Shown: positions 15,822 through 55,299, numbered from the whole stretch's first letter. The stretch is 59,389 bases of DNA, filler included, from Dugesia japonica (GCA_001938525.1; 6 parts of 6 records of this genome joined end to end with filler, not necessarily neighbours in it), one strand, 5' to 3'. Numbers and translations: made by a program. The notes: a model not told the origin generated them from the sequence alone.

Positions 15822-17447
15822 CAGTCACCACGAATGACCTCTGATGACGGATTTTAGTTACCACCGATATTCCTTGTCTAGTTTAAAGTTATTCACTACT
15901 TTTGTTGTTAATTTTGCACTTAATTCAGCCTAACCAGACAATGACTGGGCCAGATTATTTCTTTAACTAAGAAATAATAATAATATCGTATATAGCGTGA
16001 TTATAGTAATGAAATTGGGTCATAGAGACCCGTTTAATAACTTATTATAATATAGTACATTATTTTTATTATTTGATTCTTCATTTCTTTTTATCTCATA
16101 TACATTTCGTTACCGTGTGACAAAATCTGAGTCTTCTACGTCCAATTTCCGATTCTCGACATTTCCCAAAATGGGGTTTAATTAGTTTGATAACTAATTT
16201 ACTTTGATTCGACTCCAAGATAGTGTTCGATAATAAATAAGACCCAACAATATATATATGTTTATTCAAATAATCATAAATTACAACAAAGTTGTCAATA
16301 ATAATTCCAACGATAAAGAATACACAAATACGATGGTAAGATAATTAATTAATCTGAGTTGAGTCAATGGGTTTGATTTGATGAGTAATGATTGAATAGA
16401 ACTCTAGCTTCTACTATTACGACAATTCCAATTTGATTACTTTGATTTCCTTTAACTCTCTAAATTATTTCAATAAACGTTATCTTCTTGGCTAGTTTAA
16501 TTTATCTTCGACTTTCCTCCTTTTTTTATAATTCTTTAAATTCTCTTAAATTCTACTAAATTCTCAAGTTATGCTTTTTACCTTCATTTCATATAGTCTC
16601 ATTCTGGCACCATGATTCTGATTTCGCTTCCTTGTCAAGTTTTTGACAACTTTCAATTATCTTCTTTTCGCCTCTTCTGTAGCAAAATTTTCATGTCTAT
16701 TCCGACCTCCCACGTTTTTATCTTTTTCTAATTTCAGCTGTGACTTTCTAATTAAACTCTTGAATTTTTGTTACTCGCCATCTCTCTTTTTATTATATTT
16801 TTTTTCTTTCATCTTTCCGCTTATTAATAATATAATATTTTAATTAATTAATTAATATTTTATTTATTTAGATTTGCTCAATTTTAACGTTCCAGATAGT
16901 ACTCAAACATACACATGCATACACATACTTGAAATTACATTTATAATACATTTTTACATTATTTAGCATTAATTTATATCATTATTCTTTTATTTTACAG
17001 GTTTCAATTAATTTCATATTTTATTGGAATCTAATTTTACTCGACCCAAACAAAAAATTAATTCATAATAATTATACTAATAATTACATAATAGTAATGC
17101 TAATTTTATTCATACTACTCAATTTTCTGGTCCAGATCATATTTCTTATTAGTTCTTTCGTTGTTCTTTATTATTTTTCTCATTCATCATTTTAAATGCT
17201 TAATCATTTTTATTGCGTTCTAGCCCAACATTAAATATGTGAAAAAGTACTTGAAAAGTAATTTTAACAACAAACATAAAGAATATCGTTTTTTCAAAAA
17301 TTAGGTAAAAAAATAAATAATCCACATATATAAGTAATGCAATCGTTTTAATATTCCAGTATACAATCAATTTCCAAAACAAATATTAAATAACATTTAA
17401 TTTACACAAAGGAATCAGTAAAAAAATTTCCGAACATTAATGTCCTA

Positions 17448-17650
17448 ATATTGCAATTAATTCGAGAATAATTGTTGGACATAACCGTTGATCGTTTTAT
17501 AGAATTTTTTTAAAATAAAAGCTTCGATCAAAATTTTTGTTGTTTTTTATTGAAATTTGATAACAATTCGATATTTCGACCTTGTCTTCGTCAAGAATTG
17601 ACTGAAATAAACAAAACAAAAATTGTGATCGAAGCTTTTATTTTAAATGA
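17448..17650. mobile_element. Asymmetric palindromic Penelope-type (inverted pLTR) insertion, copy 1
   Basis: Inverted arms around a hammerhead core; flanked by the direct repeat ATTAATGTCCTA (17436-17447 / 17651-17662); homologous to 47778-48013 and 49287-49463. Confidence 0.75.
17564..17600 (-). ncRNA. Minimal type-I hammerhead ribozyme (C3U core variant)
   Basis: Minus strand CAAUUC-UUGACGA-A-GAC(AAG)GUC-GAA-AUAU-C-GAAUUG: 6-bp helix I, 3-bp helix II, palindromic loop-less helix III, AUC cleavage triplet. Confidence 0.7.
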
Positions 17651-17663
17651 ATTAATGTCCTAC

Positions 17664-34120: not shown

Positions 34121-34922
34121 AAGTAAACCTAAAATTGACAAACCTAATAGATAAAGTGTTATATAGAAAAAGATGCACTTAATTTGTGAGTTTGACCTAA
34201 TGAACATAATAATAAAAACAAATTGATAGTTTTTGGGTGAGTTTTGGTCAGGAATTTATTTGGTGAGGTCGCATAAGTTCTACTTTTGAACTAGTTTTGG
34301 CTCCTTTAGGTGATAATTTACGCTTCACTGGTCTTTTCTCTCACTTATTGATTTTCTCACTTGACAGGTTTTNACTCTTCACTGGTTTTCCCACTNTTCA
34401 CTAATTTTTAGTGATTAGTGCTCTGCTTACTGTAAACTAGTCTTCAGTTATCATTCGCTGCTTCCTGTGTACTGGTTTTCTTGCTCTTCACAGGTCTTCT
34501 TAATTCTTCTCTCTTTGCTCTTTTTTCTCACATATACTGCTTATCTTCCTCTATTTACAAATCTTAACTCTCATTTACTGATTTTCTTCCGCATCAGATG
34601 GTCTATGGTCTTTGCCTGCGGAAATTTATACAGTTTGATTATTGTTTTCGGCATTGAAATTTGTAGTGAACCAAAGTTTAAACTTATAAATTTAAACTTT
34701 AATTCGAATAAATGCTAATATCGATTTTATATTTTATAATCAGTAATTTGCAGATACATTTTTCCACGATTGACGATCGATTTGGAAGACTCAAATCACT
34801 ATTTCTATTGGTAATTATGGCGAAATAACTATTAATTAATAATNTCATCCAATATGATACGAGTTATCTGGATATTAATATTGAAATTCTTGTATTTAAT
34901 TTATATTTATCTTTTCAAACAT

Positions 34923-37900
34923 GTGTTGTAGTAGTAGAATAAATAATGTCTAAAAATAATAATTATGATTTGCAAAATAAATTACCAATTGAAGATATAC
35001 CTAACATGGTGGCAGCGGTAAATACCGATTCTATTACAGAGAGGTTATTGCCAAAGATGTTTTGCAGAGGAGATGATATTGAGAAATTCATCAAGCAGTG
35101 TGAATTGTCTTTTGAAGCTAAAAACCTCGCTCAGATAAAACAACAGCAGAGATTAGTCTTTTGTTTACTAGATGAAAATTTGTAGAAAAATATGCAAAAA
35201 TGTTGAAAAAAGTTGAAGGTTTTAAGGCTTGTTTACGAATGGCATTTGAGAAAGAGAAAGATATTATCAAAGACCTTCAAAATTTGATTAACTAAAGGCA
35301 TTGAAATAAAGAGATTCAATTTTATTTTAAAAATGTAAAATATTTAATAAAAAGAGTATTTACAAATAAAGATTTTATTGAAGAAAAAATGGTAGCAAAG
35401 ATGCTAGTATATTGTTCAAATAACAAAAGAGTTGAAGAAGAAGTGACTTTGCGGAAACGAGAGAATATAGAAGAAATTGAAGAAACAATGATGTAAGTAG
35501 ATAGAGTAGAGAAAACAGAGATCAAGTTGATGCAGTTAGAAGTAACGCGAGAGTTACAAATCAAGTTATTAGAAACCTGTAAATCATACTGTAAGGATAA
35601 CCTAAACTACATAAAATTTCTTCCGATTTACTCATGAAATAATGAATATAGTTATTAAATATAACAATAAAACTTTGACACTTATATTTTTAGAATGATT
35701 AATAAATATCAAAGAAATTACAATTTACTACAAAATTGTTTTAAAAAATTGTTTTAAAAAACTTTTAAAAATTGCCAAAAAATCGGTCATACTAAAGCAA
35801 ATTGTCCGACAAAAAAAGTGGTAGAGTTCTGGAGTTGCCAAAAAAAGGACATATAAGTTGAGATTATCCCCATAAAAAACCAACAAAATATTTTGGTTGT
35901 GGAAAGGTTGGCCATATTACCAGGTTATTTCAAGAAGTGAGGGGTAAACGATGTGGTAATGGTGTACATAGAGCAGAAGAGTGCTACACAAATTTGAAAG
36001 CGAAAAGAACAAGTAAGAAATTTATGACTACAAAAAGATCAAAAAACCGATNTAATCAAGTACATGCGATTGAAGATGAAGATGTTAGTACAAACGAAGG
36101 ATATCAGGAAGTATATGAAAGTAATTCCAAAAGACAGGGATCCGCCAGTAGAAGAGTTGGTTGGAGCCATCCATTATTAAATGAAGTTAGTAATTATCTT
36201 CAAGGGATCGAAAAGTGGGATGATATACGAAAAGTTACAGAAAAAGTATACAGGTTCTTAAAGAGGGAAATTATTGCGGATGATAGAAAAGTAAAATAGG
36301 TTGGAACAATTGAAACAGAAAAGAAAACAAATATATTGTACCATAAATTGCAAGGCAGACCAAGTGTTACTGTATTGATTCAAGGAAATAAAGTAGAATG
36401 TCTATTAGATACAGAGACTCGAATTAACCTGGTGAGTTTGAGTTGTTATAATAAATTACGAAAAGGAAATTTAGAAATGAGTGATGAAAGATTGCTTTGT
36501 GCAAACAACAGTGCACTTTAAATTGTTGGGAAAGTTAGAATTGGAGTGATAATTGATGAAGTTTGCAAAGAGATTACTTTCTTAGTTGCTGAAAGAGTAA
36601 CACCAGATCTGATAGGATGAATAGATATGCAGAAGATTTTTAAATACCAGCTAATGCGAAAGGTCGATAGCAAAACGGATGAAAAAGTTGAAAATTACAT
36701 TTGCAATATTGAAGCAANNNNNNNNNNNNNNNNNNNNNNNNNNNNNNNNNNNNNNNNNNNNNNNNNNGAAGATTAAAGACGATCAACAGTTATTGAAAAT
36801 AATTGAAAGTAAAGAAGATGCTTTTATGGTAGAAAATGAGATGTAAGACGCATACAAAATAATAACAAGTGGTGAATCGTATGTAAAACCGTATAGACAA
36901 CCAATGAACATAGAATCTAAAATTGAAGAAGCTATCCAAAACATTTTCGTGAATAATATTATTCGGAAATGCAACTCTCCTAGGAATACCTCACTAAATA
37001 TTTCAGTTCAATATATTTTGGAAATGCATACTATTAGGTAGAGCTCGAAGAAGAATCTCAAGAAAAAACAGTGTTTTCAACAAAGCATGGACAATATTGT
37101 TTTAAAGAATGCCATTTGGCATCACAGCAACACCAGGGACAATCAATTTAGCCATAGTTTATCTTGATGTCATTCTAATATTTGCGAATAATAAAGATCG
37201 ACACTATGAAATAATTGACAGAGTATTAATGGAAATAATGAAGACTAGTTTAAGAATTAATTCGGAAAGTGTCAGTTTCCTTAAAGCGAAATCAAGTTTC
37301 TTGGACTCATCATTAGCAGCAATGATGTTAGAACTGATCCGTTTAAAATGGAATTTGGCAATAAATTTTGGCAAACTTNNNNNNNNNNNNNNNNNNNNNN
37401 NNNNNNNNNNNNNNNNNNNNNNNNNNNNNNNNNNNNNNNNNNNNNNNNNNNNNNNNNNNNNNNNNNNNNNNNNNNNNNNNNNNNGCAACAAAAAATTAGA
37501 ATGGACAGATGAAATAAACGATACTTTTGAGGGTCTGAAAAAATCTCTAATGATTGCACCAATATTGTGTTTTCCGGACATAAAAAAAGAATTTATATTA
37601 GATACGGATGCCAGTTTTGATACAATTTGAGCAGTACTGTCATAAAGAGATAAAGAAGGAAGAGAAAGAGTTGTTGCCTATGGATCACAATAAATGACAA
37701 GTCATGAAAAGGGATACTGCATCACAAAAAAAGAGTTATTGACTGTTTAATATTTTTGTATGCATTTCAAATGTTACTTGTACGGTAGATAATTTACTCT
37801 TAGAACAGATCATAAAGCTCTAACTTTCATGATGACGACAAAAAAAACCAATTACGTCACAATTCAAGATATGGATTAATTATGTGAGCAATTTAGACAT

Positions 37901-46198: not shown

Positions 46199-49100
46199 AC
46201 AAAATTTCAATAAAATCTAAACAATAATTATATACCTTTGCTTTATTAAGTGATTCCAATTGACCAGATAAATCTTCGATATCTCCTCTTAATTCGTTTT
46301 TCTCTCTTTCAATTCTTTCATTAAAGTTATTAGATTTCATATTTCAGAATTTATTTTATAACTTACTTGGATTTAGATTTTTGTAATTGATCTAATTGAT
46401 CAGCAAATTCGTTGGCAGTGTCTTGTTGTTTCTTTCTCGTTTGCATTATTGCTTGTTCATGTTGCATATTGGCTTCTTCTAAATCGCGTTTCAATTTCAT
46501 AAGTTCTGCTTCTCGTTTTTTATTTAAATCAGTTTGTGCTTGGGTAGCACCTCCTTGTTCTTCAAGTCTTTCAGTGACTTCTTCAATTTCGGCTTCTAAT
46601 TGATGTTTGGCTTTTTCGGCTTTTGCTCTAGCTTGTCTTTCAGCTTCAAGATCTTCTTCTAATTCTTGGATTCGAGCTTGAAGTTCTTTAATCTTTCGTT
46701 GAAGGGTTGCAACTAAATTATTTTCATCTTCTATTTTGGAATTTGCACCGTTTAATTCCATTTCCTTGCGTTTCAATTGTTCTTCAAGTTCAGATTTAAC
46801 ACGTTCTAAATCATTCAGCATTTCTTGATTTTGCTTTAGTTCTCCTTCAACTTTTCGTTTTGCTTTTTCAACATCTGCTCTTACTTTTTGTTCTCGAGAA
46901 AGATTTTCCTCCATCTAAATTTATGTAATATAAATAATAACAATTGTATTTTGTTAAATACCTCATCTACAGCCTGTTCTAATTTAGCTTTAGCCTTGTT
47001 TAGATTGCTGACCTTTTCTTCTTCTGCTCGTAAAGATTCTTCCGTCTTTTTCTGCAATTCATCTGCTGCTTTCTTTTCTTTTTGCATTTTTGTAATTTGT
47101 TCTTCTTTCTCACGAACATTATCCTAAATAAATGATAGTTAACAGCATAATAAATTATGTTAAAACCTACATTAAGAGTTTTAATTTGTTGATCTTTTGC
47201 TGCCTTCTCTTGTTCCGCTTTTTGTAAAGACGACTCCAAACTCTCCACATCCTTTTTCAGTTCTTCAATTTCACCGTTCAGTTTCTTTTTAGCTTCTTCC
47301 AATGTTGTTGCAGAATTTTCTTCTTCAGACAACTGATCCTCAAGTTCTTTAATTCTTCCTTCCATATCAGCTTTTTGTAACACTAATTTAGAAACCTTTT
47401 CCTCAGCATCAGCAAGGCTGTCTTGCTCAGTTTGTAGTTGTAAAAATAAATCATTTTTAGCTTGCAAAAGAGTAACATTTTGCTCTTCTAAGTCTTTTTT
47501 ATATTTCTCTGACTTTTCAAATTCTTCTTTCAATTTCGCTAATTCCTCTGCCGCTTTTTTCATTTCTTCTTCCTGTCGAGCAATATTTAACATAGGCTTT
47601 ACCTTTGTGAATAATTTCCACCAAGTCCATGTTCTTAATACCAAGTATTTTCGGATATTTCTCTGGATTAATGACAAAGCAACTCTGAAGCAAATTATAA
47701 ATAAAAAATTAATATTTTGCTTTATTTCGAAAAAATTTCGAAATATTTTTATTTATTTATGTAAGTATGTAAGAATTGTTTTACAATTACAATTATTGCG
47801 AAAATAATTGTTGGAAGTAACCATTGATCGTTTTTCAGATTTCATTAAAATAAAAGCTTCCATCAAACTTTTTTTTGATTTTAATAATAATTCTAATTTT
47901 CGACTTTGTCTTCGTCAGGAAAGTCAATTCCTGAAAAAGAAAAAGTCGAAAATTAGAATTATTATCAAAAAGAAAAGAACAAAAATTTTGATAGAAGCTT
48001 TTATGTTAATGAAAAGTAACTAAGAATTTCAGAAAAGACATTTGAATTAAAAACTGACATTTTCATTTTTACTTTTATTTATTAGCTATCTTGATTATTT
48101 TTATTTATTTTTTTAGTGCGAATAAAATAAAACACAGTGATTTACATTTTTATTTATATTTCTAATAAAATTTGTAAATTTTTAAATTAACTTCTAAAAT
48201 TATCAAATTCAAATTATCAATAATTTCATAATTTTAACGTAATCTCCCTGTAATACTTCAAAGATGAAGAGACAAAAGAACCACATAATTTTCAAAGGAA
48301 TAAGAGGAAAAACATCGACTAATGATACAAAATTAAAAGCAAACGAATGTTCATCAAATTTGGAGGAACGTCTATAAGAGATCTTCAGTAATCAGACTAT
48401 TACCATCAATCATTCATCGATCTATTGGAATTCGGAACAATTAAACCAGTTTCAAATGAAATATGATGGATTGTTTGTCAGTAATCAAAAATTGGAATTT
48501 GAGTATTGTAAAAAATAAAGTCAAATTNAATATCTATGGAATAGAAAGAATGTCAAGTTACGGCATCGTGAACAACCAAAACAGTGCAACAAACATCTTT
48601 AAGGAAAAAAATGAGGGAAAATAGAGTAGCTGTAGAACACAAAACTTACTTGAAAATGAAACCTTCTCAACATGTGCCGATAAGATGAATGGAAAACTTA
48701 TTGATTCTACTAGATATTTTTTTAATATTGTTTACAGCTTATCGAAAAGAAACTATCCGTTTTTATAAATTGAATCCGAAATAGAGCTTCAAGTAAATAA
48801 CGGCTTGGGTATGGAAATTAAACTACATTCTCGACATTGTGTTTTTTACGAAGCTTTAACAGTTTCCAGTAGATCAACTCTCATAGTTTTCATAAAAGCG
48901 GAATCCTTTACAGCAGAATTTTCTGGAATATTTCCAGTAATTTTTATCGATATTGCGAAATTGATGCACAAAATACCAAAACTATATTTGAAATTGAAAA
49001 AAGAACTGAACAATATTTCTCAGGACCTTAATTTTGATTTAATTAAAATTAGAGAGCACCAAAATGGGTTTTATGTAGCCTTAAAACTGCTCTTCGTGTA

Positions 49101-50754
49101 TAACGAAGCTATTCTGCGTTATATGCGTTCTTTTCATCAAACTCTACTGAAGAATTTTCTGGAATGTCAAAGAGACTTAAATACAAGTTCTTTCTAGAGG
49201 ATTTAACTTTAATGATTGACATGCTTGAGGAATTCTCTTTATTGTCAACTGCACTTCTAGCTAGAAATATAAATATTATAGGAGGATTCATTTAATATAA
49301 AAGCTTTGATCAAAATTTAGGTTTTAATTATTGTTATTGGATAACAAATCGATATCAATAATTAAAACCTAAATTTTGATCAAAGCTTTTATATTAAATG
49401 AATTCTTTAAAACGATCAATGGTTAAGTCCAACAATTATTCTCGTAATAATTGCAATTGTAAAATTATAAGAGGAGATCAATAGATTCTAAGGTATCGTT
49501 GTGGTCATTATCAAAAAAAGTGGATGAAGTTATAAAGTCTGAAGCATTTAAAAAATTATATTAGTTGANNNNNNNNNNNNNNNNNNNNNNNNNNNNNNNN
49601 NNNNNNNNNNNNNNNNNNAATAGATTTTCACAAGTAATTTTTTCTTATATTTTATTTATTCCTAAATATACCTTAGTTCCTGAAGAAGGCTAAAACTTTT
49701 TTAAATAAAAATATTTTGTTCAAAACGTATTTAAATATTCCTTATTTATTTTGAAGTTAATGAAATCTTGTTGTCCTAGTTTATATAATTTAAAATATTT
49801 TTCGGTTCCTGGAACAAAATCGTTTTAAGAACCACTTGTTCAGAGTATGATTTGATGAAAAAATAATCTCAGTAAATATTCTTTCATCAATAATGAAAGA
49901 TTAAAAAATTTAATCAGAATTAATGCCAATATAATTGTAGGAATTAAAATTCTTTAAAAAAAACCGAATTTTTCATTCTTATATTTTCTAGTATGATTGA
50001 ATTTATTATTAAAAATCATGAGAATTAAACTACTAAATTTCGGTGTTTGTTTATTTGAAATAATTAGTTTAAATTGGTAGTTTAAGATATAAATTTCAGC
50101 TTGACATATAAACGACTATATGATCAGATAATCTCTGACGAAATTGATTTGTTGTCTTAATTTAACTGTTAAGTGATTTTTTGATGAAAGACTTCTTTTG
50201 AAAATTCGGATAACTAACGAAAATAAAGTAAACTAAATGTTTTTTATTTGTTAATTTTTTTATTAAAATTATTGAAAACTAAAAATCTACATAAAGTTTT
50301 TTAGTTAAGAAAAAATTCTTTAGTCTTACCGTTGATCTTGAAGTCTTTTGTATTGCCGTCTCATTAGGTATCCTCTTATTTGTGCTTGGAACATCGATAT
50401 CAATGATGACAATTTTTCATCTCTCAGATCTTCAAGTTGAGCCAGTGTACCAGCTTTGAAAAAAACTTTGGTATTACCCAATCGATAAAGATTTTTGTCC
50501 AATTGAATAGCACTAAGAATTTTATCAGTGACCATTTTGCCTTCAACAAATCCTTGTGGAATTGCATTCGGAGCCAAAATTGAATATCTTTAAAATCTTA
50601 ACTTCAATAACATGTTATAAAAGGTAGATTTATCACCGTTGTTTAAATTCTGAGTAGATCATTCTGTTTGGAAATCCCTTTCTGCAAATCCTAATACCTT
50701 CTAATACACCGTTACAATGAAGCTGATGCATAACCAAATGAGCATCAACAACTC
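40782..50754 (-). CDS. Mhc: Muscle (striated-type) myosin II heavy chain, SH1 helix to tailpiece, 15 exons; 5' motor exons absent
   Basis: GT-AG exons 50754-50637, 50587-50330, 47684-47171, 47123-46962, 46914-46367, 46314-46236, 45551-45306, 45253-45017, 44964-44655, 42359-42178, 42125-41859, 41812-41567, 41519-41367, 41313-41122, 41063-40782. Motifs [28 protein letters not shown] motifs, [12 protein letters not shown], heptad rod, [14 protein letters not shown]. Confidence 0.97.
43260..44460 (+). mobile_element. Mutator-like (MULE) transposase remnant in a myosin intron
   Basis: [22 protein letters not shown] (F.DGTFK..QLYT motif), a relic IDFE and a C-terminal IWKFID-like segment; heavily disrupted. 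Confidence 0.7.
47778..48013. mobile_element. Asymmetric palindromic Penelope-type insertion, copy 2, with two back-to-back hammerhead cores
   Basis: Fold-back centred at ~47923; degenerate TSD AAGTATGTAAGAATT (47763-47777) / AAGTAACTAAGAATT (48014-48028). Confidence 0.75.
47891..47921 (-). ncRNA. Minimal hammerhead ribozyme core
   Basis: Minus strand UUC-CUGACGA-A-GAC(AAA)GUC-GAA-AAUU-A-GAA; a degenerate mirror copy lies on the plus strand at 47926-47960. Confidence 0.6.
48440..49570 (+). mobile_element. hAT-family (KIAA1586/ZNF862-like) transposase remnant in a myosin intron
   Basis: [41 protein letters not shown] and [16 protein letters not shown] resemble this family; internally deleted and interrupted by palindrome copy 3. 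Confidence 0.6.
49287..49463. mobile_element. Asymmetric palindromic Penelope-type insertion, copy 3 (opposite orientation, ribozyme truncated)
   Basis: Near-perfect inverted arms; TSD ATTATAGGAGGA (49275-49286) / ATTATAAGAGGA (49464-49475); the centre keeps only the 3' side of the hammerhead (GATAACAAATCGATAT). Confidence 0.75.
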
Positions 50755-51061: not shown

Positions 51062-51817
51062 TTCATTTTATAATAATTATTGTTAATAATATTAAATTAA
51101 TTCAAATTTACTTGAATCTAGTAGTTCTTGTGACTCTGATACTTGGATGAAAATTGCAGTAATTAAAATTATTTGAAAAAATAATAATAGATATTTTCTA
51201 CAAGGAACGTCGTTCATAGCTCAATTTATATATATTTTTCGATAATATTACTTCTTATATTTAGTATTTAAACCAATAATAGTTGGAAATTTATTGGTTG
51301 TTTTCCATTTGTCAGTTTTTGTTTTATTTGATTTACGCGTTATGAAAATATTAATTAGAAATTTCTGTTAAAATGCACAATCTTCTCATTTCGATTGTTT
51401 TAAATAATTAGCTTTTATTAGTATATGATAGATGGTTTTCTATTTACTAATTTTCGTTTAACACTTTATGAATAGGTTTCTAAGTGGTGAAATCGTTTTA
51501 TTTTTTGAAATACGACAATTGCTGAGCAGTTATGAAGAGCGAGACCCAATCAGTAGGAGTAAATGTAGAATATCAATAAGTTTAAGCGGAAAACAGAAAA
51601 AAGCCTACCAGTAATGCTACAACATTTTAATGAAAAATGTAGTCAGAACTTTTATTATTTATTCATTCTTAATCGTGTTTTATATTCTGGGTGGCACAAA
51701 AGTCTCTCACGACAGAAAAGTTTAAGAAAAAAGGTAAAATATGTTTATATGATTTATCGTATTTCTTGTTATGTTTGTAAGCAGTCAAAAAATCTTTGAA
51801 AACTTCGTTTGATTATT

Positions 51818-51939
51818 ATTTCTATACTGTAATACTAATAATTTCTATACTGTAATACTATTAATTTCTATACTGTAATACTATTAATTTCTATACTGTA
51901 ATACTATTAATTTCTATACTGTAATACTATTAATTTCTA
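51818..51939 (+). repeat. 23-bp tandem repeat x5.3 (ATTTCTATACTGTAATACTATTA)
   Basis: Near-identical units starting at 51818, 51841, 51864, 51887 and 51910. Confidence 0.92.
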
Positions 51940-52460
51940 AATTATGAAAACTAACAGTTTATTACAATAAATGTCCAAATTGTTGACCTTGAACCTCGAA
52001 ATAACTTTTGAAGTCGGTGTTCACAAAAGTCTGAACATTCTGCAACACTTGGATATTTATCTTCAAGCATTCTAATATTATTCTTTCTTTCAAATCTAAG
52101 ACTTTCGTAAAACGATCTAAACACATACCGAAATTCAGGTAGCCCCATAGAAAGAAGTCGATAGTCGTAAAGTCTGGAGGCATATGTGGCTATTCTACAG
52201 CACAACGCCCCCCAATCTATTTATTTAGAAATTAAATATTCAAAAAGTCTCAAACGACGTAAGAAAATGTAGGGGTTAACCCTTATGCATGAACCACATA
52301 TTCGCTCAGTTTTGCAATTGACACCAGTTCAAAATAGGTATTAAGAATGTCTGTAACATAAATTAGCTTTCTACCAATGACATTAACTGCAAACAAAGTT
52401 TAAACTGATAAGCTGTTCACTCTACAAGGTGGCCCACACCATTACTTTACATTTATGTTG

Positions 52461-54534
52461 TGTTTTGATGTTTTAATATCCAACATAAAAATTTTATGAA
52501 AAGTTTCATAAAAATTTTATGTATTAATAATGGAAGAAATTTTAAATAAAAAAAAGAAACTAATTAAAACAAAAATTTGTATAATATTACTATTTTGTAT
52601 TAGAATAAATTTTTCATTTTATTTTCTTATAACTTATTGATAAATATTTACAGATGGAAACTGGAGAAAATATAACATTGGCTAATATGGCGTTCCACGC
52701 AAGTGCGACAAAAGACCGGCTCGTAGAAGCTTTGAGGCCAAAAGCATATAGAAAATGAGATGACGTTGAGAATTTTATAGTCGAATGCCGAAATTATTTT
52801 GATGCAGCTAACTTAACCAAGAGTACCAGTGAACTGGTAATTGTATTTGAACAGGATAATAAATTGAGGCGAAGATTCAAAAAAACCAATGAAGGACAGG
52901 GTTACGAAGATAGACTAAGACGTTTAGTCATCAAAGAAAATTCATTTGTAAAGAATATCAAAAGTGTATTGTCATTGTAATCGTTTCTGACATTATCTAT
53001 ACGGTATACGATTCATCCTACGAATAATTCATAAGGCGTCAATTTTCATGATAAAGACAAAGAAACCAATGACAGCACAGTTTCAAAACTGGATAAACTA
53101 CTTAAGTAGTTTGGATATGGATATTCATTACAGAATAAGAGAGCACATTCTAATGCCGAAATTATATCCAGAATAAAGTGCGAAACTTGCGTACAATGTG
53201 AAACGCAACACAAATAGGCCATGACAGATAAAACACGAATACGATTACAACGAATACGGAGTTCAAATGGCAGAAGGACAATGTTGGAAAAAAAAGATAT
53301 AATAAGGAACATCAACGAAGGCAAAAGTTCAGAATAAACAATTAAAAAGGTATAGTCCGACCAAAAAGCTACAAAATATTGATTCCAAAAGAGAAACGAT
53401 CAGAATGTATAAAGGAAATTCACACCCTACTAATGAACGCTGATCAAGAAAAGATATTATATTATATTATAAGTGGATATACTGAATAAGCGCGAAATAG
53501 AACAGAGACAATAAAAATTCGGAGATTGCCAAAGAAATAAAATATACACATCAATAACAAAAGAAGAGAAAATAACACTGGAAACTAACCATGTATTTGA
53601 AAACATCTATATCGTCGTATGTATTTCAAAGAGATACTACAAAGAAAGAAATACAGACTAGCCATAATAGATCACTATAGTAAATATATATCATTGTCGG
53701 CCATAGGAAGACAGGATGAGAAAACCATGAGCAAGATAATCAGGGGAAAATGGATCCTAAGGCTCGGAGCACCAAAGTAGATACATATTGATTACGGGAA
53801 GAACTTAGAATCAAAGGCGTTCAAGGATATTGCATGCAGAATGGGCATATAACTATGTTACTCGAGCCTATACCACAACGGGACAAATTGCTTGGTTGAG
53901 ATACAATTCAGAACCGTTAGGAACAGCATGAATTCATCTGGAAAAGCAAATTGGGACGAAAAGATTCCGGAATTAGAGTTCATGATAAACGTCACATATC
54001 AAAGGATAATTAAAACCAGTCCAGCTGCCATGGTTTACAGAAAATAGATTCAAGGAGAACGATGAATTGATCATGGAGAAGTAGAAAAGAAGTGGATAAG
54101 TGGGAAATTGTACCCAACTCGTGGAGCCTTCAAAATCGGTCAGAAAGTACTGGTGAAAAACAAAGTATGGTCAAAGAACAATGGAAGATACGATGGCCCA
54201 TACGATATAAAGGAAAATATCTATTAAAAATTGTGCAGAAGAAGAAGACAATGAATGAAGAGCAATATACAGAAATATGGAAAAGCTAAAATTTCTTAAA
54301 GAAGGGAAATGTTAGGATGTTTTAATATCCACCATAAATTTTTTGAAAAGTTTCAATAAAGTTTTATGTATTAATAATGGAAGAAATTTCAAATAAAAAA
54401 AGAAAATAATTAAATCAAATAATTTTTTTAATATTATTATTTTCTATTAGAATAAAGTTTTCTGATAACTTATTTACTTATAACTTTTTAATAAATATAT
54501 ATGGAAATTCGAAAAAATATAGCAGTGGCTAATA
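52461..54534 (+). mobile_element. Internally deleted Ty3/gypsy element 2 with both LTRs and a 5-bp TSD
   Basis: LTRs 52461-52687 and 54310-54534; TSD TGTTG (52456-52460 / 54535-54539); PBS-like TGGCGTTCC at 52688; PPT AAAGAAGGGAAA 54298-54309; gag N-terminus joined to the RNase H end and integrase (GPY); no protease or RT. Confidence 0.92.
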
Positions 54535-55299
54535 TGTTGAAAATGAGTTGTTTTCATCTAATGTTGGTTTCCATCAGACTAATAACGTGTATTATGTCTG
54601 AGGTGAATAGTCGCTTCGTAACTCAAAAAATGTTAGACATGAGGTTTCGCTGTTTCTGGAACCATTGTCAGAATTCCATACAATGATCCGTTTCATGCAA
54701 TAACACTAGAATATTATAAAATCATTGACTACGAGAACGCTCATATTATAATGGGTTTGATATTAAATTTATGATTCAGTACTGAAACTTCTACTGCTTT
54801 GGCTTATTAATAATCAAGATACTTAAATATAAAATGCAAGTGGTGGATAAGAAGGCTACGCCTTAGATTGCTTCTCAATCATAAAGAAAATCTTAATCAT
54901 TCCTATTTTAATAATTTGTCATAAAATGCCTCATCAAATTTATTTTTAATATTGACTAAATAAGAAACGATACACAAATGATGAGAAAGCCTTGTTAATC
55001 ATGTAATTATTAAACACTTTTTTTGATAAATTCAAAATATCGAGTAGCCGTATCTTCACTGAAAACATATAATCCAACACATTCGTAGAAAAACACATGT
55101 AAGTAAAACATCCCAACGAAACGGATGTATATAATATCAGAGATATGTTCATAACTAGTTGTATAAACTGGTGCAAAAATTAAAACAAATCAAGTCAATC
55201 TGAATAAATTACAAATATGTACAGTTGGAAATTGATATGATCTTGAAGTTTTGTTTATATATTTAGGTGTGAATAATAAATATAATTTCAAAATTTAAG

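Follow-up and report, generated by a model that had tools for sequence, protein, structure and literature searches.

Fold-back repeats of Dugesia japonica as the front end of an EN+ Penelope-like element, with an excess of insertion ends at the predicted hammerhead cut site

The window (the whole stretch of DNA analysed, 59,389 nucleotides with filler, from Dugesia japonica, GCA_001938525.1) consists of six AT-rich stretches joined together. It contains three homologous asymmetric palindromes, at 17448-17650 (copy 1, on contig C614778), 47778-48013 (copy 2) and 49287-49463 (copy 3, like copy 2 on contig C598378), which match one another by BLASTN with E values of 1e-26 to 1e-30, far beyond chance. 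The short arm of all three stops at a common point (..AAGCTTTTAT.TTAA(A)TGAA). A sequence-only reading had picked out these palindromes, their common end and a separate direct repeat of 12-15 bp around each, all of which was borne out, the direct repeats matching at 12/12, 13/15 and 11/12 bases in copies 1, 2 and 3.

Unit positions are numbered from the G of GTCAATTCC, which is 0, and unit position u of copy 1 corresponds to window position 17602 - u on the minus strand. Copy 1 is bounded by an exact target-site duplication (TSD) of 12 bp (left 17436..17447, right 17651..17662). Its long arm, on the minus strand, is a full pLTR (17505..17603) starting from the common 5' boundary (unit -1), as identified by similarity to locus L023, and is followed by a tail of about 57 nt (17448..17504, minus strand). 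[quoted passage not shown] Over 154 nt of pLTR and tail together, copy 1 shows 92% identity with the pLTR linked to an ORF in L023 (E 8e-60). The start codon (17488-17486, minus strand) is mutated to ACG in copy 1, position 17487 being A in nearly all aligned relatives. The short inverted arm (17606..17650, plus strand) is a tail-less, 5'-truncated pLTR covering approximately unit +51 to +97, and is separated from the long arm by 2 nt of filler. The copy 1 locus is also present with the same flank and about 99% identity on L004 (G000:C328859), as an allele or a recent duplication, and the contigs aligned to the window contained no empty-site allele.

Copy 2 lies between TSDs at 47763..47777 and 48014..48028. 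Its tailed arm (47778..47921, minus strand) starts from unit +5, such that the hammerhead core is kept and most of the 5' strand of helix I is gone, while its tail-less inverted arm (47920..48013, plus strand) covers unit -3 to +97 and has a mutated core; the two arms overlap by 2 nt. Copy 3 has the opposite orientation and no hammerhead core, with TSDs at 49275..49286 and 49464..49475. Its tailed arm (49352..49463, plus strand) starts from unit +46 and carries no hammerhead. Its tail-less inverted arm (49287..49355, minus strand) has a 5' end at unit +28 to +32, ambiguous because of a 4-nt microhomology and adjoining the predicted hammerhead cut site. It is the only arm in the window that ends near the predicted cut, and does so ambiguously.

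Copies 2 and 3 sit, in opposite orientations, within a minus-strand myosin heavy chain gene, in the interval separating two of its exons (46366-47752 and 50329-50589; Myosin_tail_1, E 9e-14), with coiled-coil repeats from about 42262. Copy 3 splits a more GC-rich ORF-like remnant within the myosin intron (48240-49550), which has a 142-aa frame at 48769-49194 with no convincing Pfam match. Elsewhere the window holds a tandem array of about six copies of a 23-bp unit (51795-51962), and three repeat pairs of 130-200 bp, dispersed or local, at 77-94% identity (4270-4424 / 5404-5558, 52489-52689 / 54336-54536 and 3268-3398 / 34813-34943), for which the checks made showed no relation to the PLE unit.

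The long arm of copy 1 contains a predicted minimal type I hammerhead at 17564..17600 on the minus strand, recognised from its sequence and spanning unit +2 to +38. Helix I is formed by 17600-17595 and 17569-17564, the core lies at 17594-17587 and helix II at 17586-17578, and helix III is a palindromic AUAU. Cleavage is predicted at 17570|17569 (minus strand), separating +32 from +33, exactly where it had been placed before. The hammerhead of copy 1 had also been described as intact, which it is not: core position 3 is C in 138/150 relatives and is changed to U in copy 1 (17594), and in the predicted fold of the copy 1 monomer the core pairs with helix I instead. The 150 relatives were chosen without any hammerhead motif, and they show the marks of minimal type I hammerheads, namely the conserved core, the extra base after A9, G10.1-C11.1 and a palindromic 15.2-16.2. 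Variation is greatest at N7, loop 2, H17 and the outer helix I pair; the latter is formed in only 55% of the copies, and H17 is G in only 2/150. Positions 15.2/16.2 are TA in 116 and AT in 19 of the 150 copies, probably reflecting few events, since one inherited change counts many times, and the swap keeps the palindrome needed for a dimer.

Covariation in helices I and II had been suggested as a test, alongside variable TSDs and asymmetric arms. The last two were found, but no compensatory change recurs among the 150 copies, in which a pair is either kept or lost through a change on one side only. An Rfam scan of the window gave no hammerhead family, and its five weak matches were all below the gathering score. 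A further candidate hammerhead part, CTGAAGAAGGC at 49680, was rejected because it has no matching helix II or GAAA. The AATAAA that follows the hammerhead in copy 1 had been pointed out as well, but is not a conserved feature, being absent from one large subfamily, and was rejected as a poly(A) signal for this reason; arms end at fixed points about 45 and 100 nt further on.

Genome-wide abundance was measured as exact pattern counts in the assembly (G000, 854 Mb), which are lower bounds because copies differ by 10-20%. There were 3,637 exact matches to a 27-mer from the tail, 5,784 to a 29-mer from the arm end and 4,095 to a 20-mer from the hammerhead start, with 2,602 matches to a hammerhead pattern of 32 places, while reversed-pattern controls gave 0. 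The high abundance expected from three copies in the window is thus confirmed, and by this measure the pLTR and tail unit is present in thousands of copies. The 26-mer across the junction from tail to ORF has 29 exact matches, compared to 3,637 for the tail 27-mer, and ORF-less stubs, counted in this way, exceed tail-to-ORF junctions. Many copies lie inside (AAT)n microsatellites (L013, L019, L037, L188, L198 and others), which is consistent with a target bias tied to the linker zinc finger, as described in the available part of PMC8557442.

Among the best 30 loci for copy 1, six have common upstream sequence, which in L018, L023 and L030 can be followed back into sequence for a GIY-YIG domain and an RT thumb. 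A further 30 loci were found with the RT/endonuclease body. They have decayed RT and endonuclease frames, in which GIY-YIG is recognised with a Pfam E value of 2.6e-6, mostly followed by the unit, and the unit ends there either near +97 with no tail or near +157 with the tail. The pLTR is thus found 3' of RT-thumb and GIY-YIG sequence in L018, L023, L030 and many of L060-L089. In L154 the unit is instead 5' of the ORF and the tail reads as the first ORF codons; the tail continues into the ORF in 30/30 loci found with this type of junction. A 5' pLTR and partial tandems are also seen in L195-L197 and L201, so that the pLTR occurs on both sides of the ORF. Given that the unit lies both 5' and 3' of the ORF and that the tail is the ORF start, it is concluded from homology that the repeat is the pLTR and tail of a C-terminal EN+ PLE with decayed coding copies in the same genome. 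The Penelope link, the minimal type I hammerhead and its palindromic helix III, the inverted pLTR with a one-sided tail, and an RT/GIY-YIG partner (found here with the same pLTR at both ends) had all been anticipated by the sequence-only reading; its view that the repeats are wholly non-coding fails on the tail of the long arm.

A complete relative, P0001, has 843 amino acids. It shares 76% identity with the L064 RT and has the same starting peptide, and the tails of copies 2 and 3 agree with its first 20 residues. Its domains are RVT_1 (E 7e-7) and GIY-YIG (E 2.8e-4, just below the Pfam cut-off). A CCHH motif, composed of a CxxC between the GIY-YIG halves and downstream histidines, is present in P0001-P0007 and in L069. 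The partner also has DKT and, between RT and EN, a C-x3-C-x-C-x5-C linker, while in the more distant matches P0004, P0006 and P0007 the linker is CX3CxxC, a form found in Neptune and Nematis (CX2-5CxxC). The DKT and CxCx5C motifs suggest the Hydra clade, but membership was rejected since CCHH is present too, which Hydra lacks. Judged by its motifs (P0001; L064, L069, L084), the partner may belong to a lineage between Nematis/Neptune and Hydra. No intact ORF was found among the loci examined in this fragmented assembly, all of those read carrying stops or frameshifts. The 3'UTR of one coding copy contains a 114-bp fold-back stub of the same element with a 12-bp TSD (L018:1255-1368), which recalls the self-targeting of PAc in vitro.

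Loci for the analysis of arms were sampled by motifs lying 3' of the region tested, taking the first 100 places per motif in contig order. Thirty places per motif were used as loci and 20, 40 and 60 further regions were added, so that the samples are mostly short contigs in contig order and are non-random. Arm ends were called by anchored extension and a likelihood model with a constant truncation risk and one spike, dropping arms with less than 57 nt of flank. Sample A comprises 141 arms at 114 loci. Sample B represents another subfamily, with A at +32, and had 89 matches, of which 9 were dropped for short flanks and 10 as duplicates, leaving 70.

About half of the arms begin at one sharp boundary just before the hammerhead: by EM mass, 73/141 arms in sample A and 35/70 in sample B start at -9..+1, as do some ORF-bearing copies. 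Of the 4,095 exact 20-mers at the hammerhead start, only 277 are preceded by the 3'UTR 8-mer that lies upstream in ORF-linked copies, a share that mutation in the 8-mer could at most approximately double, by our estimate. The AG at -1/0 was also considered as an acceptor for splicing or trans-splicing, but this was rejected, because most arms keep the upstream A-run. The boundary is likely to be the start of the RNA, and an internal promoter has been reported for Penelope of D. virilis in the available parts of PMC2377424 and PMC6765202. Most stubs would then be run-off cDNAs from the junction of 5' pLTR and ORF. Most arms begin about 35-40 nt upstream of the predicted cut, and therefore come from uncut RNA. 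Three same-species RNA runs on L201 and two on the window gave no pile-up of RNA ends at the boundary or the cut; these are random-fragment libraries and little informative. A search of sequencing runs had listed no RNA holder. In the two larger runs 95-97% of reads run into unrelated sequence, with both strands present, and the reads look like passive copies inside host RNAs.

A second, smaller group of arms starts at +33, the first base after the predicted cut. In sample A this position ranks first of 36, with a risk of 0.12 compared to 0.014 per base, and in sample B it again ranks first of 36 (0.08 compared to 0.009). With one weight per locus, the likelihood ratio test (LRT) at +33 gives 11.3 for sample A (114 loci; reached by 0/150 null simulations) and 5.9 for sample B (70 loci; reached by 1/150). 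A stricter set of 83 arms gave an LRT of 6.9 at the same position. The EM mass at +33 is 15/141 in sample A and 4/70 in sample B, with 3 more at +32, so that the arms starting at the cut site are a minority of about 6-11%. We regard it as somewhat more probable than not that this excess is an indirect trace of cleavage in vivo by the predicted ribozyme.

It could also have arisen without cleavage, through a polymerase stall at the hammerhead fold, through joining favoured by the AATT at +34..+37, or through small-RNA slicing, and we keep this as a serious if less favoured possibility. In sample A the neighbours from +28 to +35 are also raised, and there is a second bump at +28 (LRT 7.4), which cannot come from cut RNA without microhomology. 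The AATT is palindromic and a few junctions are centred on it (L222, L274). The RNA reads show no ends at the cut, nor are there any for PAc in the available part of PMC11167929. Against these points, the peak at +33 is one nucleotide wide and is replicated in a subfamily with a different base at +32, and the null simulations included inverted-arm flanks. In L311, L320, L326, L427 and L441 both arms end at +33/+34 with non-matching filler between them, rather than microhomology. Nor is there any excess at the other positions that start with G (+10, +13, +16, +22 and +25). Cleavage by the hammerhead is the reading that we prefer for the +33 excess.

At their 3' ends, arms stop at two fixed points, near +97 and near +155-165, and longer ends follow ORF sequence. 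The two points match the two internal RT start sites and the two-strand priming of PAc in the available part of PMC11167929. In fold-backs where the tail is readable it is on one arm only. It is on the inverted arm, with the forward or ORF-side end tail-less, in L147, L151, L160 and L169, which implies that either strand can take either start site. An origin by a single priming, in which one run-off cDNA folds back and copies itself (or self-primes on an antisense template, as favoured in the available part of PMC3846280), would account for the matching of arms within a copy and for junctions that are perfect palindromes (L274, L130). It also allows most of the 38 tailed fold-backs compared, namely the 19 in which the two 5' ends are similar and the 8 in which the tailed arm is longer. 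However, in the other 11, and in copies 2 and 3, the tail-less arm extends further 5' (by at least 12 nt in the 11) and so has 5' sequence absent from the tailed arm. This class is beyond one snap-back, since neither cDNA could serve as template for the part that it does not itself contain, the tail in the one case and the extra 5' sequence in the other. Extra resection would be needed, and snap-back gives no reason for the short arm to stop at +97, the point used by tail-less solo and ORF copies. We therefore consider a single priming unlikely. Two primings joined head to head would be the simplest account of these arms.

The sequence-only reading had proposed a separate non-coding, ribozyme-processed family mobilised by a Penelope partner. 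Such fold-backs would be transcribed, cut by their own hammerhead and inserted again in trans through the protein of the PLE, in the manner of a retrozyme or SINE. There were 108 fold-backs across the loci compared, 57 of them in motif-selected samples, and among these 57 the junctions are nearly all different and variable, with microhomology or filler. If one master fold-back had spread, its descendants should have junctions in common and variants peculiar to one side; neither was seen, whether as junctions shared across dispersed copies in the 57 motif-selected fold-backs or as arm-specific variants in 43 arm pairs. Two junction types do recur, an ATAT overlap at +28/+46 and a TT overlap at -3/+5, but both are on microhomology and on differing subfamily backgrounds. 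In the 43 copies with both arms long (a set that includes similarity-selected loci, with two copies dropped for length), the distance between arms is 9.2% within a copy and 18.4% between copies, a difference not reached in 5,000 permutations, and the distance between copies is alike for same-side and opposite-side pairs. Gene conversion within the palindromes could contribute to the arm matching. Copies that carry the ORF can have the same inverted cassette on their 5' side (L194, L198, L199), and ORF or 3'UTR sequence is contained in longer inversions (L017, L063, L075, L143, L146, L195, L213).

The very high copy number relative to ORF junctions would suit a family of its own, as would hammerhead variation that falls mainly at tolerated positions, and pLTRs are reported to act in trans (available part of PMC3846280). 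Set against this are most arms starting upstream of the cut and the many fold-backs in which the hammerhead is missing, broken or buried in a long hairpin. Head-to-tail tandem arrays with a hammerhead per unit were not found among the loci read, where units are single or head-to-head, and a retrozyme reading was rejected on this arrangement. We consider a family of this kind very improbable. Given the diverse junctions, the matching of arms within copies and the same cassette before coding copies, the fold-backs are likely not a self-propagating family, and each was probably built anew at insertion, although some stubs may serve as templates, re-mobilised in trans as single pLTRs. Movement as a MITE by a DNA transposase, which small size, inverted repeats and high copy number might suggest, can be dismissed: as the sequence-only reading had foreseen, the resemblance is superficial, since the arms are asymmetric, the internal junction is variable, the TSDs are variable (9-19 bp, mostly 9-12, in 28/49 tailed fold-backs and none in 21/49, without a shuffled control), and the arms match the pLTR of an RT and GIY-YIG element.

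With good confidence, then, we regard the repeats as the front end of a PLE, pLTR and tail, each fold-back likely being made at insertion by two RNA-copying events. From the biochemistry of PAc (available part of PMC11167929), the GIY-YIG endonuclease would nick an AT-rich target on each strand, with about 10-13 bp between the nicks. Each nick would prime reverse transcription at one of the two internal start sites, so that one cDNA has the tail and the other lacks it, and the two would be joined head to head by end-joining. Arms reaching -9..+1 would be short run-off cDNAs from the 5' pLTR-ORF junction that stop at the transcript start, while those beginning at +33 had, somewhat more probably than otherwise, a template that the hammerhead had cleaved beforehand. 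The stubs are likely dead ends.

Most of this anatomy has precedents, here compared using the parts of the cited papers that were available. The EN+ elements Pen2a_Av and Pen2_Av of Adineta vaga (PMC3846280) similarly have an inverted, shorter 5' pLTR and an optional tail on one arm. As here, Adineta Penelopes have a pLTR with a tail containing the first ORF codons, microhomology junctions, short TSDs (8-10 bp) and an ORF of about 840 aa. In that paper pLTRs alone are reported to have been enough for mobilisation in trans. The Adineta elements differ in that here ORF-less stubs dominate by roughly 100 to 1, in thousands, and in that the tail is about 57-65 nt compared to 31. The junctions described here also fit two primings better than the self-priming favoured for Adineta.

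The general PLE scheme (PMC8557442) includes 5'-truncated copies, an inverted 5' copy, a tail at one end, a pLTR hammerhead, a C-terminal GIY-YIG with CCHH and AT-rich or microsatellite targets, all as found here. The partner, however, mixes Hydra-type DKT and CxCx5C with the CCHH that Hydra lacks. Minimal hammerheads (PMC4209133) likewise have a CUGANGA core, an extra nucleotide after A9, G10.1-C11.1 and a palindromic 15.2-16.2, and occur mostly as single dispersed motifs from truncated PLEs, with opposite-strand pairs 100-700 bp apart. Helix II is only 3 bp here, in contrast to theirs, and the available part of that paper contains neither in vivo evidence nor the mapping of insertion ends carried out here.

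A parallel for the two primings is PAc, a Poseidon element of Anolis (PMC11167929, available part), which has two internal RT start sites bounding the tail, the tail being inside the ORF start. Both target strands are nicked and extended, targets are AT-rich and the hammerhead is protein-assisted, and we liken this to the repeats described here. The PAc ORF starts inside the hammerhead, whereas here it starts about 85 nt after the predicted cut. There are no PAc RNA reads at the cut in the text available, and uncut RNA is the main template in vitro; in our case a minority of genomic ends are at the cut. Animal non-LTR retrozymes (bioRxiv 10.64898/2026.07.22.740005, available part) are also non-coding, hammerhead-bearing and related to PLE pLTRs, but are arranged as tandem head-to-tail units that each contain a hammerhead, in contrast to the single or head-to-head stubs found here.

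The anatomy of the inverted-pLTR stub is thus already published (available parts of PMC3846280, PMC8557442 and PMC4209133), and the repeat family is ordinary. Only one finding touches on an open question, namely that ends are in excess at the scissile bond in both samples. In the literature covered, largely the main texts of freely available papers, we found no description of PLE insertions whose ends cluster where a hammerhead cuts. How PLE inverted ends form, and whether minimal hammerheads cut in vivo, are both open questions in the available parts of PMC8557442, PMC4209133 and PMC11167929, and the function of hammerheads in EN+ PLEs is called unclear in the first of these. The value of the repeats is as a dataset, because thousands of short copies provide statistics for both questions. 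The short-copy data favour two independent primings over snap-back and point to the transcript start.

There is also a practical consequence for annotation. The palindromes sit inside host transcripts on both strands, and such sequences could be misfiled as MITEs or as miRNA hairpins, for which the window scan gave weak matches below threshold. On the reading that we think fairly probable, the stubs are a genome-wide fossil record of PLE RNA ends, containing the RNA start, both RT sites and the cut, and approximately one in ten templates was cleaved by the minimal hammerhead in the germ line, ahead of being copied. If this is true, these weak ribozymes do cut in vivo, and two-strand priming can still use the RNA after it has been cut.
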